Shown: positions 25,248 through 32,244 of the stretch, piece after piece | Position numbering within the stretch: position 1 is the first letter of the stretch | How the letters are laid out: each line of letters starts with the position of its first letter | Source: Chlamydiales bacterium | Lineage (GTDB): Bacteria; Chlamydiota; Chlamydiia; Chlamydiales; JARBTN01 | Length of the DNA: 57,930 nucleotides | Direction: 5' to 3' | Assembly: GCA_029240195.1 (NCBI GenBank) | Contig: JARBTN010000001.1 | Span: 1-57,930 of the forward strand | Translations under genes and position numbers: made by a program | The notes under the pieces: generated by a model | Seen by the model: only the letters and a program-made list of their open reading frames with translations | What the model was told of the DNA's origin: nothing | Database searches by the model: none

Positions 25248-25967
25248 CTATGAATGCTGAGACGTAGAGAGGCTGAGCCGCCCAATGCGCAACGAGGCCT
25301 TGACGAGCATGCTGACCTCCAGGCCGTCGATATTCAAAGGCGGGATGGCTTTGGTTTGCGAGTCGAGCATTTCTATTTGCAACAGTTGAATGCGGTCGAC
25401 TAAATCGATCAGCTGCGACTGGTTAAAAAATTTAAGGAGCGCTGTCTGTTCTGTGGAGCTTAAGTTCAGCTCATCGAATTTCTCCTGTTCGGAAAGGCTT
25501 TCAAAGCTCTCCATGTAGGATCTATTGCACATCTTTTTCAAAAGTGTGATGAGCGCTTCATTTTGCGTCAGAGCCTTCACAGCTTTATCAATTTTCTTGA
25601 CTTGCCAAACTGCCGGCAAAGAGGCTTTATCATAAAGGTCTTTGAAATTGAGGTCGGCCATTAAAACGGCTAAGGCCGCAATTTCACAGGAATTGACTTC
25701 GATGAGCGATTTATAATAGCAGCGCAAAGTCTTTCGAGCATGTTCCACAGCATTTCTGACCAACTCTGAGTTTTGTCGAATCAGGCGGTCGATGGCCACA
25801 AGGCGTGTCTTATCATCGCTGAGGCCAAGCTGCGTGTTTGGTTTGACATAGTTTTTATTGCCCTCGGTATCTGTGATGGAGTGAGCGCCCTTCGAACACC
25901 AGTTGTTGCAGGCATTGATATGGGAGACTTCAATCGTTAGGCCGGTTGAGCTTAATTCAATAGACAT
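25248..25967 (-). CDS. Hypothetical protein, member of the island helical-module family (paralogue of 27891..28574)
   Basis: 239 aa. GLSDDKTRLVAIDRL..TLRCYYKSLIEVN..MADLNFKDLYDK..LITLLKKM..LLKFFNQSQLIDLV aligns by eye with the 227-aa protein. N-terminal ACNNWCSKG Cys motif. Confidence 0.6.
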   Translation of the reverse strand: MSIELSSTGLTIEVSHINACNNWCSKGAHSITDTEGNKNYVKPNTQLGLSDDKTRLVAIDRLIRQNSELVRNAVEHARKTLRCYYKSLIEVNSCEIAALAVLMADLNFKDLYDKASLPAVWQVKKIDKAVKALTQNEALITLLKKMCNRSYMESFESLSEQEKFDELNLSSTEQTALLKFFNQSQLIDLVDRIQLLQIEMLDSQTKAIPPLNIDGLEVSMLVKASLRIGRLSLSTSQHS

Positions 25968-26138
25968 AATCCTCCTGATGGGCCATAAAAACTTTAAAGA
26001 AAATGCCTTTCATGGCCAGAAGGCATCTTCTTTAAACGGATCGGCATTTTTCTATCCTTTCTTGAGCAGAAAAAGTTAAAAAGTCAGGCGGCCTTTTAAG
26101 GGAGTCGCCTTTCTCCTTTTTAAATCACTTTCCCGCCA

Positions 26139-27839
26139 TCACAGATCGGCGTCGAACAGATACTCCGTTCCGTTATAAGTCAGCTTTAGAGGCTGCTTTC
26201 TATGTTTAATAGCCTTAGCAAGCTTCTCTATGACTTGCTCTTCGTCAATCCTGTCGCAGTCGACGATCACCAGTTCTTCCAGCTCCACTAAATGCTTTAA
26301 AAGGTTGGGAAAGCATTTAGCTGTTAGGTGTTCGCAGCGGGTCAAAGAGATCCTCTTGACTGGTTTATTGACCAAATCGCGCAGCACTTCCAGATCGTCA
26401 TTTGTTAATGGGCTATCTTCAATCGATAGCTCGCTAAAGCAGGGGCTTTGGAACATGAGCAGGTTGACCACCCAGCGCAGATGTTGGGCGCTTCTGACTC
26501 CTGTCAGCGATAAGCAAGTGATGACTCTCAATATGGGGCTATAATCGTGGTTGTAGTGGGCGCTCAAAATATCTGCTTCCTTCACCTCCTCCCGATCTAA
26601 GAATCCCTGCAAATAGGTGAAAAGTTGCTCTAACTTCTCATCTTCGTTTGTAAAGCCTTCGGAAGAGACGACCCTTTTTTCCCCTAATTGCTGTAAAAAA
26701 GGCTGCGCAATTTTAGGGCAGTTAAAAAAGCGCCAGTAGCCGACCGAATGGGAACGGGTCAAGCAATCTTGCACCGCCTCTTCGCTAAGTAGAGGGCAAT
26801 TTTGCAACGTGATAGAGGCTAGATGCTTAAATTTTTTTAAAAAGGAGATGTCGATCTCTTTTGAGATATCGCTCAGGACCAGATGGTTGACCTGAATTTG
26901 ATTTCGCTCCAGCAGCAAAAGTAGGTGCTGCAAAGCCTCATTGGTCAGGTGAGAGGCCTGAACGGCGATGCCTGAAATTTTAAAAAGGGAATTCGCTCCT
27001 GAAAAGAGGTGGCGGTCCATTCTTCTAAGTTCAAACTGGGCTTCTCTGCATTCAGGATAGCCTTCTTGTAAAGAGGCGAAGATACTCTCAGCAATGCCTT
27101 CAAGCGAATTGGAGACAGGCCTTGGTGGATACGTCTTTTTTCTTGTGGCGACAATCATTTTCGATTGAATGATCGAGCTTGGATTCGTGGAAGTGGAGGT
27201 GGAGACGCGGCTGGCTGTATTGTCTCCTAAGGAAACAATTGAAAACCTTCTCTGTTCCAGCTCTGGAGCTGTGCGAGACCTGCGCTTCTCTTGCAAGCTC
27301 ATATGGGTCAAATGGTGAGAGATCTGGGTGACATCAGAGGTTGGCGAGGATGAATTTGGCAAGATAAGCGATAGGCGCTTGTCATTTTTTTCGATGCGCA
27401 TCGGCTCAGCTTTGTTTAGCTGGACCGATGGGGGAGCGCTATCTGCTTTTGGCTGGCTAGATGAGACAGCAGCATCTTGGGGAAGCTCTGGGGATGTATC
27501 ATGGGACGCATTGGTCCTTAAAATGCCCATCTCAAGGTCGTTTTGCCTCTTCGCTTTCTTTGCCTGCTGCGTCCGATGCACGCAGTCACAGCAGTCTTTC
27601 ACAAACTGCGCTGTAAAGGCAAGGGCGAGCCCCCCTGTGGTGATGATGGCAGGAACATAATACTCAGGTCCATTATAGGCGATTGTAACGCCGGTGATGG
27701 CGCCGCTCATCGCACCGAAAAAGATAATTTTGATGTAGGGCGTTTCCATTAACTTTTTAAAAGGAAAGGAAACGTGTTGCTGGGGCGCTGGTGCTGGCGC
27801 TGGTGCTGCTGCGGCTGCGGCTGCGGCTGGAGTGATCAT
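26139..27839 (-). CDS. Inc-like membrane protein with a C-terminal eukaryote-like LRR domain
   Basis: N-terminus MITPAAAAAAAAPAPAPAPQQ. Bilobed hydrophobic domain IKIIFFGAMSGAITGVTIAY-NGPEYY-VPAIITTGGLALAFTAQFV. Ser/Pro-rich linker. LRR_CC-like units: LASITLQNCPLLSEEAVQDCL, ISLTRCEHLTAKCFPNLLKHLVELEELVIVDCDRIDEEQV. Confidence 0.65.
   Translation of the reverse strand: MITPAAAAAAAAPAPAPAPQQHVSFPFKKLMETPYIKIIFFGAMSGAITGVTIAYNGPEYYVPAIITTGGLALAFTAQFVKDCCDCVHRTQQAKKAKRQNDLEMGILRTNASHDTSPELPQDAAVSSSQPKADSAPPSVQLNKAEPMRIEKNDKRLSLILPNSSSPTSDVTQISHHLTHMSLQEKRRSRTAPELEQRRFSIVSLGDNTASRVSTSTSTNPSSIIQSKMIVATRKKTYPPRPVSNSLEGIAESIFASLQEGYPECREAQFELRRMDRHLFSGANSLFKISGIAVQASHLTNEALQHLLLLLERNQIQVNHLVLSDISKEIDISFLKKFKHLASITLQNCPLLSEEAVQDCLTRSHSVGYWRFFNCPKIAQPFLQQLGEKRVVSSEGFTNEDEKLEQLFTYLQGFLDREEVKEADILSAHYNHDYSPILRVITCLSLTGVRSAQHLRWVVNLLMFQSPCFSELSIEDSPLTNDDLEVLRDLVNKPVKRISLTRCEHLTAKCFPNLLKHLVELEELVIVDCDRIDEEQVIEKLAKAIKHRKQPLKLTYNGTEYLFDADL
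27786..27830 (-). repeat. GCN trinucleotide/hexanucleotide repeat encoding A8(PA)3
   Basis: The plus strand reads gcgctggtgctggcgctggtgctgctgcggctgcggctgcggctgg, at the 5-prime end of CDS 26139..27839. Confidence 0.85.
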
Positions 27840-31152: not shown

Positions 31153-31272
31153 GAAAAGAAGTCTCTCGATTTAGAGATGATTAGGTGCATTCAGATTTTT
31201 GCGCGGCCAATCTCAAAGCATGGAGGGGTAGCTTTAAAAAAACCTCCATGCATCTTCAAGATATGAGAAATT

Positions 31273-32244
31273 CTATTCGGACGCTGTGAGGGAAGCTATA
31301 GCTGGTGCTTGAGCTGGTGCCTGTGCGGTCTTTTGTGAAGATGAGGAGGAGGAAGAGGTCGATTCTGTTTGAGAGGCTTTTTGCGCTTTGAGATTCTTAA
31401 CAACTTCAACGGCAAAGGCGACAAGATTTGTGGCCTCTTTTTGCGTCAAGGTGGTGAGTGTGTCGATATTCACTTCTTTGCCTTGCTGGACGATGGACTC
31501 TAGCTTGGTGAGCACCTGTCCCACTTTCTCCGCTTTTAACTTTTGCAAGATTTCGCTCGTCCCCTCCTCCAACACCTGTTTGCCATAGGCGATGAGGGCA
31601 GAAGATTGCTTTGGCGATTGAGCATCGAATAGCGCTTGATTTTGCGCCACGAGATCGACGAGGGTTTGAGCAATGGTCTGGATTTTATCGGTTGTGTTGT
31701 AAACTTTGACCGCATCGCTTAAGAGCAGTTTGCCCTGTTCGGCGCTTCCTCGTAAATTGACCTGGGTCAGGCCCTGGGCGACTACGGCGACAAGCGGGTG
31801 GAACTTATCGGAGATCTGCTGCAAGATGGCATTGGCCGCAGCCTTTACTGCATCAAAAGCCATCTGTTCGCCCTTCATCACCACTTTCCAAGCGCCCTCT
31901 TCCATGGCGAGCAGGGCTTTTTTGCTATAGGCGAGCACCTGAATGGGGGAGGCCATGGTTGTGATGACTTCATCGATTTGTTTGCCCTTATCTGACTGTT
32001 CTAGAAGCGGCTGGGCATATTCGATATAAAGAGGGGTTCCTTTTTTCATGATCGGCAGGCAGAAGGCATAAACTTTTTGGGCTTCCTCTTGGATCAGCGG
32101 CGCCCCCTGTTCGATGAGGGAATAGACGAGCTTTTCTAATAGGCCGTTAGCCCTTGCCTGAAGCGCTGTTCCCTTGGGCAGAGAGGTGACTTCGGCAAAA
32201 GAGGCGACTCCCAAAATGCTATTTAATCCGCTTGATCCGTTCAT
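31273..32244 (-). CDS. Hypothetical all-helical protein with a Ser8/AQAP C-terminal tail
   Basis: 323 aa, rich in A/Q/L/K/V, with no TM and no recognised motif. It ends QTESTSSSSSSSQKTAQAPAQAPAIASLTASE. It is the first gene of the minus-strand island. Confidence 0.55.
   Translation of the reverse strand: MNGSSGLNSILGVASFAEVTSLPKGTALQARANGLLEKLVYSLIEQGAPLIQEEAQKVYAFCLPIMKKGTPLYIEYAQPLLEQSDKGKQIDEVITTMASPIQVLAYSKKALLAMEEGAWKVVMKGEQMAFDAVKAAANAILQQISDKFHPLVAVVAQGLTQVNLRGSAEQGKLLLSDAVKVYNTTDKIQTIAQTLVDLVAQNQALFDAQSPKQSSALIAYGKQVLEEGTSEILQKLKAEKVGQVLTKLESIVQQGKEVNIDTLTTLTQKEATNLVAFAVEVVKNLKAQKASQTESTSSSSSSSQKTAQAPAQAPAIASLTASE

Follow-up and report, generated by a model that had tools for sequence, protein, structure and literature searches.

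The groEL-mraY interval in the metagenome-assembled genome of this uncultured member of the Chlamydiales is a variable chromosomal slot, and in the stretch analyzed here (57,930 nucleotides, hereafter the window) we read its contents as lineage-restricted, probably secreted host-interaction genes that are arranged in about four transcription units and do not constitute one six-gene system, a reading to which we assign a probability of roughly 0.5. The genes concerned, designated A to F, comprise a previously undescribed helical protein family (A, C and part of E), a predicted membrane protein with a leucine-rich repeat (LRR) domain (B), a protein with a Sec-type signal peptide (D) and an orphan (F).

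Six minus-strand genes and their probable transcription units

All six genes are co-oriented on the minus strand, exactly at the coordinates given in the initial annotation: F (31273..32244, 323 aa), E (29380..31152, 590 aa), D (28866..29354, 162 aa), C (27891..28574, 227 aa), B (26139..27839, 566 aa) and A (25248..25967, 239 aa). The JGI and NCBI calls recover the same six genes with small start-codon differences in C (227 aa or, in the NCBI call, 217 aa) and D (162 or 160 aa), and the genes are identical across three independent assemblies (NCBI, JGI and Logan). The peptides and low-complexity tracts quoted earlier are likewise present, namely A8(PA)3, G6 and AQAP, which occurs twice in tandem, but the serine run is S7 and not S8. 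Each of the six proteins is a singleton in a collection of 15 billion proteins, and none passes a curated Pfam or NCBIfam cutoff. The earlier statement that none can be placed in a characterized family holds at the level of these cutoffs, but needs amendment for D, which matches TIGR03067 below threshold. Relatives of B, D, E and F were absent from every fetched locus and from the database searches, and relatives of any of the six were absent from plasmid and viral contigs as well as from phage and defence libraries.

The spacing and folding of the intergenic regions divide the block. Behind the stop codon of D, a stem-loop with U7 and A7 flanks (28792..28857, minus strand; inverted repeat I5) folds with −29.7 kcal/mol (z=−4.56), which was equalled by 0 of 200 shuffles, and forms a terminator-like boundary between an E-D and a C-B unit. 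The gap between B and A (−45 kcal/mol, z=−2.96, also equalled by none of 200 shuffles) contains a GC-rich hairpin with U-runs directly after the B stop (26060..26112, minus strand), which likely marks a transcription-unit boundary. A hairpin after the F stop, consisting of a 9-bp GC-rich stem followed by UUUG (31212..31251, minus strand), is a possible but weak F/E boundary: The gap has a z of −2.07 and 7 of 200 shuffles fold equally well. E and D are spaced by 25 bp, C and B by 51 bp, and the latter gap is unstructured, folding no better than shuffles (z=0.15). C and B are probably co-transcribed, and E-D and C-B are the only pairs that look co-transcribed. Hairpins and gene spacing therefore suggest about four units, F / E-D / C-B / A, and not one operon, bearing in mind that hairpins are no proof of termination; chlamydial promoters lie outside the coverage of the promoter scan.

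Proteins B, D and F

In agreement with the Inc-like and LRR architecture originally attributed to it, B is, as modeled, a membrane protein that combines an Inc-type bilobed domain with an FBXL/RNase-inhibitor-type LRR solenoid. From the N-terminus, the sequence is composed of the A8(PA)3 tract, the bilobed hydrophobic domain, a CCDC motif (residues 83–86), a Ser/Pro-rich linker and the C-terminal LRR domain. The bilobed domain (residues 36–80, nt 27600..27734, minus strand) was delimited by Kyte–Doolittle analysis and sequence reading and consists of TM1 IKIIFFGAMSGAITGVTIAY, the loop NGPEYY and TM2 VPAIITTGGLALAFTAQFV; its hydrophobic segments cover about residues 36–55 and 62–80, and 19-residue windows exceed 1.5 at starts 35–36 and 62. 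For the LRR region (residues ~289–562, nt 26154..26975, minus strand), a single-sequence AF2 model of the fragment (pLDDT 62.6) displays strand/helix alternation with two blocks of cysteine-containing RNase-inhibitor-type β-α repeats and, between them, a helical insert of low confidence (~384–447). The top Foldseek matches of this model are KDM2A/FBXL11-SKP1, FBXL3, RNase inhibitor, NLRP/NLRC4, FBXL17 and Legionella LegL7, with E=6e-4 to 1e-2 and probabilities of 0.9–0.99 at low TM-scores of about 0.3. No Pfam LRR threshold is passed, the best score being 16.4 bits for LRR_RPS2 against a cutoff of 27.9, and the database searches returned no homologue other than B itself.

B shares with chlamydial Inc proteins their defining bilobed domain, i.e., two hydrophobic helices of ~20 residues that lie close to the N-terminus and are joined by a loop of 6 residues, as well as a large hydrophilic C-terminal domain, which in B would by analogy face the host cytosol. 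It differs from them in that its sequence resembles none of the Inc families described and in that its predicted cytosolic domain is an FBXL/RNase-inhibitor-type solenoid, whereas Chlamydiaceae Incs have coiled-coil or SNARE-like cytosolic regions. A second likeness leads to LRR effectors: The Parachlamydiaceae F-box/BTB/RING plus LRR families NEX1 and PEX1 carry functional type III signals (PMC4209131), and together with LegL7 (PDB 3goz) they resemble B in that an intracellular bacterium of the amoeba type carries a eukaryote-like LRR domain for protein binding; the Foldseek matches with FBXL3, FBXL11, FBXL17 and LegL7 correspond to this domain. F-box+WD40 and F-box-like proteins are likewise encoded in the window. 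Unlike these families, B lacks F-box, BTB and RING domains and possesses an Inc-type membrane anchor instead, and it has neither a BLAST-level paralogue in the window nor a detectable homologue in the databases.

D begins with a Sec-type signal peptide (MTMFKK-CFTWAALFTMAFTL-RA), which is followed by a TIGR03067-like domain. The match (E=9.7e-8) reaches 32.2 bits against a cutoff of 40.15 and aligns the C-terminal halves of protein and model (E=1e-7 when rounded), residues 91–148 of D corresponding to positions 50–106 of 107 in the model, so that the match takes in 57 of the 107 model positions. D has no sequence relative in the PDB and no Pfam match. TIGR03067 was described from Planctomycetes and other PVC bacteria, its domain is typical of free-living members of this group, and we found no paper that mentions the family. 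Because of its classical Sec-type signal and this domain, D is probably retained in the bacterial envelope, as far as can be judged from the sequence, which speaks against its assignment to a host-facing module. F is rich in Ala, Gln and Lys, with the S7 run in its C-terminal part and (AQAP)2 as its tail. F was considered as a member of the A/C/E family and rejected (hhalign against A1, E=0.7); searches against family models and the PDB gave noise-level matches only, and F is an orphan unrelated to A, C and E.

The helical TLxxYY family

A, C and the C-terminal half of E constitute a previously undescribed and extremely rare family of soluble, mostly α-helical proteins with a core of ~70–100 residues and the invariant pattern T-L-x2-Y-Y-x2-L-x19-F-x3-Y. 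A and C, whose shared module had been aligned by eye, are true paralogues (BLASTP E=8e-19, 29% identity over 200 aa). The core of A comprises about residues 45–150 (nt 25518–25835, minus strand); in an AF2 model of modest confidence (pLDDT 57) it is all-helical after a small hairpin with a pLDDT of about 75, residues 1–39 are low-confidence or disordered, and the fold has no match in the PDB (best E=0.7). Two weaker module copies had been proposed for E, one of which stands: Residues 364–449 (nt 29806–30063, minus strand) score 13.5 bits against the A+C profile, a value reached by 0 of 2000 shuffles, give E=8e-4 in hhalign, and reach 18.6 bits (E=2.5e-4 among 12,090 ORF fragments) against a six-sequence profile built without E. 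The other, a possible first module in degenerate form at about residues 127–196 (nt 30565–30774, minus strand), is suggestive only: It fails the profiles (−2.8 bits with A+C; −0.8 bits, equalled or exceeded by 204 of 2000 shuffles) and is weakly favored by an in-register alignment of E with itself, the score of which was reached by 3 of 1000 shuffles. E further contains the G6 tract and is without a relative in Pfam, NCBIfam or the PDB.

A short Cys/Asn cluster lies ahead of the core in all members but C; it reads CNNWC from residue 20 in A, CCNGCC at residue 59 in E and CSYNNCC in the second-lineage proteins described below. Of the window's 36 longest ORFs, only A and E have the motif, and composition-matched shuffles produce it at rates of 0.35% and 0.78%; it was defined post hoc, and a profile test was not significant. 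Palmitoylation of N-terminal cysteines targets effectors such as Salmonella SspH2/SseI and Legionella GobX/LpdA to host membranes (PMC4951486). The clusters near the N-termini of A, E and the second-lineage proteins and the juxtamembrane CCDC of B resemble such sites at the level of sequence only, S-acylation having no consensus and C having no cluster.

An HMMER search of 1.84 billion representative proteins yielded A, C, P0004 (E=9e-8 against A over the core) and one low-complexity repeat protein, which was judged spurious by eye, and nothing else; outside the present lineage, the family occurs in one chlamydial lineage only. In two related species of this second lineage (loci L003 and L004), a tandem pair of family genes is followed 39 bp downstream by a co-directional murF, which is closest to the murF of Parachlamydiales (219 bits vs at most 185 for ~80 other phylum-diverse loci); a B-like gene is absent beside the pairs on these two short contigs. 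The family orthologues of the two species are 70% and 74.6% identical with dN/dS values of 0.095 and 0.113, and their MurF proteins are 73.5% identical with a dN/dS of 0.144. The second-lineage family is under purifying selection as strong as that on MurF. Two observations run counter to an effector role: Between these two species MurF evolves at least as fast as the family, and the family's co-direction with and distance of 39 bp to murF also fit a bacterial-internal function.

The chromosomal slot and competing readings

On its left, the slot is anchored by a groEL copy without groES (23435..25030, minus strand; TIGR02348, 720.6 bits), which is 60% identical to and colinear with the groEL of a Parachlamydiales locus (L005) and is the orthologue of the groEL facing murF in that order. 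The right anchor is mraY (33484..34653, plus strand), which starts the series mraY-murD-LysM-ftsW-murG-murC-ftsQ-like. The interval also contains, on the strand of the six genes, rsmI (32385–33209, 274 aa in the JGI call; TIGR00096, 248.6 bits) and tRNA-Cys(GCA) (33231–33301; ARAGORN and Rfam), together spanning 32385..33301. The layout of this Parachlamydiales genome is groEL | murF-mraY-murD with small unrelated ORFs only between groEL and murF, which bears out the proposal that the block sits where murF normally resides. The absence of murF from the slot is explained by a displaced, divergent murF-like ligase ~14 kb away (47366..48949, minus strand), for which TIGR01143 (murF) is the best match with 205.5 bits, under its cutoff of 288.6. 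Since the TLxxYY family also lies directly upstream of murF in a distant chlamydial lineage, its association with the slot looks old.

The initial annotation combined all six genes into one host-facing inclusion-membrane module, in which B would be the anchor and the helical proteins A, C and E would dock as adaptors. We consider this unlikely: The common orientation, the bracketing of B by A and C with an unstructured 51-bp gap between C and B, and the Cys clusters in A, E and B are in its favor, but F, D and B are each followed by a terminator-like hairpin, D is a Sec-exported protein whose domain is characteristic of free-living PVC bacteria, and the short contigs of the second lineage have family pairs next to murF and no B-like gene. 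Moreover, no relatives of B, D, E and F were found in the fetched loci, L003 and L004 included, or in the databases, and co-occurrence of the six genes is therefore not demonstrable, which leaves a six-gene system unsupported.

A different view would regard TLxxYY proteins as bacterial-internal factors tied to the dcw cluster, e.g., as lineage-specific partners of MurF/MraY or of FtsZ-less chlamydial division, with B, D and F as unrelated neighbors. It is also improbable, since housekeeping dcw partners would be expected to be widespread, whereas the family is confined to two lineages among 1.84e9 representative proteins and is absent from the Parachlamydiales slot. The second-lineage pairs 39 bp upstream of and co-directional with murF, the same groEL-dcw slot in the window and dN/dS values as low as that of MurF accord with such a role, but the family genes of the window lie on the strand opposite to the dcw operon. 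Tandem and dispersed paralogy, with 29% identity between A and C and lengths of 227–590 aa, is atypical of core division proteins, as are low-confidence N-termini and acidic or low-complexity tails.

That the block is a recent mobile island, integrated at tRNA-Cys with displacement of murF, is very improbable, and the related suggestion of lineage-specific cargo inserted near a tRNA gene is not sustained. The tRNA gene does lie at the block edge, murF is displaced, and the GC3 of the six genes (0.47–0.60) is somewhat below that of housekeeping genes (0.58–0.69); however, this mild difference marks no clear compositional break and resembles the values of other resident orphan, F-box and LRR genes, and neither an integrase or transposase nor a duplicated tRNA end nor a flanking, att-like direct repeat of at least 16 nt was found for the block. 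The lack of relatives on plasmid and viral contigs and in phage and defence libraries, together with the family's presence in the same slot of a distant lineage, likewise argues against recent mobility. Finally, spurious ORFs or chance similarity of helical low-complexity sequences, as the singleton status of all six proteins and the failure of the first E copy in profile tests might suggest, are largely refuted by the A/C similarity (E=8e-19), family members with dN/dS of ~0.1 in an independent lineage, an E module outscoring 2000 of 2000 shuffles and identical genes in the NCBI, JGI and Logan assemblies.

We thus return to a variable slot filled with lineage-restricted, probably secreted genes. 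A host-facing role, as proposed at the outset, is plausible in a region with many F-box and LRR genes: The window contains F-box+WD40 and F-box-like genes, and a CC-type LRR gene lies just past groEL. By analogy to chlamydial Incs and the Parachlamydiaceae F-box/LRR effector families, B would probably be exported by type III secretion and inserted into the inclusion membrane, where its LRR domain would probably offer a protein-binding surface to the host cytosol, and A, C, E and perhaps F would probably also be secreted host-interaction proteins. A functional link would most likely be pairwise, connecting C with B, and not that of a six-part machine. A variable slot with lineage-restricted, probably secreted genes is already known in environmental chlamydiae.

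Gene content and putative transcription units of the slot

The interval from groEL to mraY (the slot), in which groEL is followed by six genes A–F, rsmI and tRNA-Cys, is best supported as a variable chromosomal site filled with lineage-restricted genes. The six genes are all encoded on the minus strand, and the ORF calls agree exactly with the initial annotation, which had read them as one island: A (25248–25967, 239 aa), B (26139–27839, 566 aa), C (27891–28574, 227 aa), D (28866–29354, 162 aa), E (29380–31152, 590 aa) and F (31273–32244, 323 aa). They are also called in the NCBI MAG ‘Chlamydiales bacterium’ (K0S07_23 to _29) and on one JGI metagenome contig, and gene A adjoins groEL on one short Logan contig, too. 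Of the six proteins, none passes a Pfam or NCBIfam threshold, and the sole near-match aligns the C-terminal half of D with that of TIGR03067 (E=9.7e-8; 32.2 bits, below the curated cutoff of 40.15). In a collection of ~15 billion proteins five of the six genes are near-singletons at 90% identity, the 90% cluster of C consists of two start-codon variants, and D as called here has no exact counterpart. In a tblastn search of all fetched loci with the six proteins, B, D, E and F were without relatives, and no papers turned up in the literature on TIGR03067 or on the identifiers of the sample and locus.

The N-terminus of D is a Sec-type signal of the classical kind, composed of MTMFKK, a hydrophobic core and RA; D has no sequence relative in the PDB, and most likely stays in the bacterial envelope. 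F, an orphan rich in Ala, Gln and Lys, contains an S7 run and has an (AQAP)2 tail; Pfam, NCBIfam and PDB searches gave noise-level matches only for this protein. The NCBI numbering K0S07_26 and _27 implies an additional small gene near 28726–28881, where JGI calls a 51-aa ORF (28726–28881, minus strand); this ORF, which extends over the 3′ end of D and a terminator-like hairpin, is probably spurious.

Following the block from rsmI to groEL, the intergenic gaps measure 140 bp (rsmI–F), 120 bp (F–E), 25 bp (E–D), 291 bp (D–C), 51 bp (C–B), 171 bp (B–A) and 217 bp (A–groEL). Tight linkage is limited to E–D and C–B, and the gaps after F, D and B are structured: a highly stable stem-loop with U7 and A7 runs on its flanks lies 3′ of D (z=−4.56), a GC hairpin with U-runs 3′ of B (z=−2.96), and a weaker hairpin 3′ of F (z=−2.07). 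The C–B gap is unstructured (z=0.15), with AAGGAGG immediately before the start codon of B. From this arrangement we infer four putative transcription units, F / E-D / C-B / A. A scan for sigma-70 consensus promoters, which is uninformative for chlamydiae, gave fewer sites than shuffled sequences. The proposal that the six genes constitute one system is unsupported, given the structured gaps and the lack of homologues of B, D, E and F from which co-occurrence could be judged; the candidate linkage worth considering is a pairwise one, of C with B only.

The TLxxYY family and its second lineage

The initial annotation had further described a helical module common to A, C and E, with two copies in E. 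A and C are paralogues (BLASTP E=8e-19, 29% identity over 200 residues), and the core of A matches P0004, a protein from sample SRR26470704, at E=9e-8 (32% identity over 57 residues). The core of this TLxxYY family follows the pattern TLxxYYxxL-x19-F-x3-Y, over which its members are related by pairwise or profile similarity; invariant across six sequences are T80, L81, Y84, Y85, L88, F108 and Y112 (A numbering). F is unrelated to the family. Residues 364–449 of E score 13.5 bits against an HMM of A and C, the best domain score among 2000 shuffles of E being 5.3 bits, and 18.6 bits (E=2.5e-4 in 12,090 ORF fragments) against a six-sequence family HMM built without E. An hhalign comparison of the A+C profile with E yields E=8e-4, and E versus A is marginal by BLASTP (0.04–0.08). 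Judged by these alignments, the copy at E364–449 is real but distant. The region E127–196 scores −2.8 and −0.8 bits against two family profiles, and 204 of 2000 shuffles (~10%) match or beat the latter value; its in-register alignment with the distal copy (E131–196 versus E381–443) reaches a Smith–Waterman score of 47, as do 3 of 1000 shuffles. The common module thus stands for all three proteins, with one copy in E, and the additional N-proximal copy is suggestive only.

Apart from C, every family member carries a short Cys/Asn cluster N-terminal to the core. It reads CNNWC in A and CCNGCC in E; in the second lineage its form is CSYNNCC or CCSYNNC. Of the 36 longest window ORFs, A and E alone match the corresponding regular expression, which was defined post hoc and is found in <1% of composition-matched shuffles; when the N-terminal Cys motif was tested as a profile (HMM), the result was non-significant. 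A, C and E have no Sec signal. An AlphaFold2 model of A, built on a four-sequence alignment, has a pLDDT of 57 overall and of ~75 in the core (residues 41–150), which consists of a small hairpin followed by an all-helical part; the termini (residues 1–39 and 199–239) are of low confidence. Foldseek found no fold match for this model in the PDB (best E=0.7), the effector VepA (probability 0.6, TM 0.32) not being credible, and profile and sequence searches of the PDB with the family gave no match. Assignment of A or C as a class I chaperone of type III secretion was rejected, as both are too long, helical and non-acidic.

The family is exceedingly rare. When 1.84 billion representative proteins were searched in full with the A+C profile (HMMER), four were returned at E≤0.001, namely A, C, P0004 (E=5e-4) and a low-complexity repeat protein, which is a spurious match. 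A word-index search with A and C yielded nothing beyond the two query proteins, and with a five-sequence alignment P0005 was the sole addition among the matches listed. A degenerate DNA pattern of the invariant residues matched 96 times in metagenomes, and the family HMM detected no new member in the returned loci.

P0004 lies on L003, a 4.4-kb Logan contig of SRR26470704 that encodes two tandem family paralogues (421 and 432 aa), followed after 39 bp by a genuine murF on the same strand (343 bits; cutoff 288.6). A second contig from this sample, L004, has the identical layout family–family–murF. The two MurF proteins are 73.5% identical, which indicates two different species. Between the two contigs, the family orthologues share 70% and 74.6% identity and show dN/dS values of 0.095 and 0.113, as compared to 0.144 for the adjacent murF, with dS near saturation; the family is thus translated and constrained by purifying selection. 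Among ~80 fetched, phylum-diverse dcw loci, a Parachlamydiales murF is closest to the MurF of L003 (219 bits; others ≤185), which identifies the second lineage as chlamydial but distant. Both contigs terminate immediately before the first family gene, at what may be a repeat or a region that varies between strains.

A serious rival to a host-directed function of the TLxxYY proteins is a role inside the bacterium, tied to murF and the dcw cluster: the family adjoins murF in two species, and its dN/dS is no higher than that of MurF. The extreme phyletic rarity of the family, its paralogy and length variation, and the opposite-strand orientation of its genes in the window count against such a role.

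An Inc-like LRR protein and further effector-like genes

A bilobed hydrophobic domain of ~40–60 residues is the defining feature of chlamydial Inc proteins. B, which had been annotated as Inc-like, indeed possesses such a domain: two adjacent hydrophobic segments (residues 36–55 and 62–80) are separated by a loop of six residues. The N-terminal A8(PA)3 stretch of the protein is unusual, and the hydrophobic domain is followed by CCDC, a Ser/Pro-rich linker and cysteine-containing LRR-type repeats, for example LASITLQNCPLLSEEAV and VKRISLTRCEHLTAKCF. B matches none of the Inc models in Pfam and NCBIfam; it has the bilobed domain in common with described Inc proteins but no sequence homology to Inc families. 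A homologue search with residues 240–566 (the C-terminal 327 aa) returned B itself alone, and the window contains no paralogue.

The best Pfam LRR match of B, LRR_RPS2, scores 16.4 bits and remains under the gathering cutoff of 27.9. In a single-sequence AlphaFold2 model of residues 240–566 (pLDDT 62.6; best parts 70–89), strands and helices alternate in two blocks. The best Foldseek matches of this model are KDM2A/FBXL11–SKP1, FBXL3, ribonuclease inhibitor, the LRRs of NLRP and NLRC4, FBXL17, TIR1 and Legionella LegL7, with E from 6e-4 to 1e-2, probabilities of 0.9–0.99 and TM-scores of merely ~0.3; nearly all of the top 20 are LRRs of ribonuclease inhibitor, FBXL or NLR type. The modelled solenoid and these matches bear out the LRR assignment, at the stated TM-scores and with sub-threshold Pfam support. 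B resembles FBXL proteins in its modelled LRR solenoid but differs from them in lacking an F-box, as Pfam detects none in B. A membrane-anchored, F-box-less FBXL mimic is not known to have been described for Chlamydiae.

F-box matches occur in three window genes other than B. Eukaryote-like genes lie at 3998–5521 (minus strand) and at 52679–54520, 54806–55915 and 55963–57759 (plus strand); they comprise one protein with an F-box and a WD40 propeller, two F-box-like paralogues that are 57% identical to each other, and a third gene that has a short segment in common with these paralogues. This suggests a local expansion of candidate effectors related to ubiquitination. Two further effector-like orphans are encoded on the plus strand just past groEL: one of 244 aa (21421–22155), whose N-terminus is hydrophobic and which has cysteine-containing LRRs (LRR_6 sub-threshold), and one of 310 aa (22331–23263), which is Pro-rich and has a run of 11 threonines. 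An inverted repeat at 23285–23352 (32 nt, 91% complementary, 4-nt loop) separates the latter from the convergent groEL and is probably a bidirectional terminator.

The groEL–murF/mraY junction and the proposed role of its genes

The window is core chromosome: its left part holds tuf-nusG-rplA...rpoB-rpoC, the LRR gene, the poly-Thr gene and groEL, and the slot is followed on the right by mraY-murD-LysM-ftsW-murG-murC-ftsQ-like, with ddl in convergent orientation. On L005, a complete Parachlamydiales chromosome, an orthologous groEL (60% identical to that of the window) is divergent from murF-mraY-murD at a distance of 1.27 kb, a layout that bears out the groEL/murF-mraY-murD backbone given in the initial annotation. 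The gap between groEL and murF contains only two small unrelated ORFs, at 7368–7751 and 8049–8375 (both minus strand), which supports the variability of the slot; one of them has the C-terminal sequence ...GLALALKW, as is typical of outer-membrane beta-barrels. L005 and L006 were the only chlamydial loci in an MraY-anchored scan of genome contigs, which yielded mostly non-chlamydial dcw clusters from a collection that does not include the source MAG. As noted earlier, murF is missing from the slot of the window; a divergent murF-like Mur ligase was found instead at 47366–48949 (minus strand; best match murF, 205 bits versus the cutoff of 288.6). This 527-aa protein with a TTG start matches from ~residue 163 on and so has a long N-terminal extension, and its gene lies ~14 kb from mraY, not directly upstream, with a 4-bp overlap with an alpha/beta-hydrolase gene (48946–49698).

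Several features of the flanks deserve mention. The groEL gene (23435–25030, minus strand) has no groES upstream, and its product scores 720 bits against canonical GroEL, above the cutoff, and 319 bits against the Chlamydiaceae GroEL3 model, which fails the threshold of 600: the ‘GroEL3’ position is conserved, and the window protein is far less derived than its Chlamydia counterpart. The longest rsmI ORF (32385–33329, minus strand, GTG start at 33329) runs through tRNA-Cys (33231–33301); the 274-aa JGI call begins at 33209, which is probably the true start. A near-perfect palindrome at 33413–33454 (20-nt arms, 95% complementary, 2-nt spacer) between the divergent tRNA-Cys/rsmI and mraY might serve the dcw operon as an operator or as a regulatory hairpin acting in both directions. 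Downstream of murC, an FtsQ-type POTRA gene (40365–41237, plus strand) overlaps ddl (41203–42507, minus strand) by 35 bp. In Chlamydia, ddl is fused to murC, whereas here the two are separate genes, and ddl converges with the ftsQ-like one.

The initial annotation had explained the slot as lineage-specific cargo inserted close to a tRNA gene, an explanation that is not supported. Pfam and NCBIfam detected no integrase or transposase domains in the block, no direct repeat of ≥16 nt flanks it, no tRNA end is duplicated, and it has no relatives on plasmids or viral contigs; an Rfam scan matched the tRNA only. GC3 of A–F is 0.47–0.60 versus 0.58–0.69 in housekeeping genes, a range shared with other resident orphan and F-box genes. 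We therefore reject a prophage, an integrative element or a mobile island, for which integrase or transposase, att repeats, a clear compositional break and plasmid or viral relatives are all missing. Moreover, the family is murF-proximal in the second lineage, there on the murF strand, so that its association with the junction looks ancient and not like a recent insertion. Better candidates for foreign origin are two minus-strand orphans whose GC is much lower than that of the six-gene block, at 46132–46767 (GC 0.369, GC3 0.32) and 43237–45486 (GC 0.435, GC3 0.47). We likewise reject an anti-phage defence system or phage genes, as no PADLOC or PHROGs model matched any of A–F at E≤0.01.

Within a variable site of lineage-restricted genes, several of the genes are probably host-directed. 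This reading is drawn by analogy with the F-box/BTB/LRR effectors of Parachlamydiaceae, families whose type III signals are functional (PMC4209131), and the window itself encodes F-box+WD40 and F-box-like proteins. B would be an Inc-type inclusion-membrane protein that presents an FBXL-like LRR surface toward the host cytosol, and A, C and E would represent a new soluble helical family with no Sec signal, a low-confidence N-terminus in the model of A and a Cys cluster in most members. A bolder extension, which we regard as improbable, is that the TLxxYY proteins are inclusion-associated adaptors of a new fold that are secreted, S-acylated together with B, and jointly capture a host target. A deep clade of chlamydiae, as yet unsampled, would have passed the family down at its groEL|murF junction. 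Once the proteins had left the bacterium by type III secretion, their Cys/Asn clusters (in A, in E and in the members from the second lineage) and likewise the juxtamembrane CCDC of B would be modified by DHHC enzymes of the host. All modified proteins would thereby be tethered to the cytosolic face of the inclusion, where the helical cores would bind the target together with the LRR solenoid of B. S-acylated effectors have precedent in SspH2/SseI and GobX/LpdA (PMC4951486).

Overall, the initial description is largely borne out and its interpretation partly so. The TLxxYY family is new, and the kind of locus is familiar in environmental chlamydiae, in which orphan effector-like clusters are common; the locus opens no long-standing question. 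If the host-directed reading is true, the chlamydial host-interaction repertoire would gain a new protein family and an unusual architecture, a fusion of an Inc anchor with an FBXL-type LRR domain without F-box. In at least two deep lineages, such genes would then have the groEL|murF-mraY junction as a recurrent hot spot, which could guide effector discovery in uncultured Chlamydiota.
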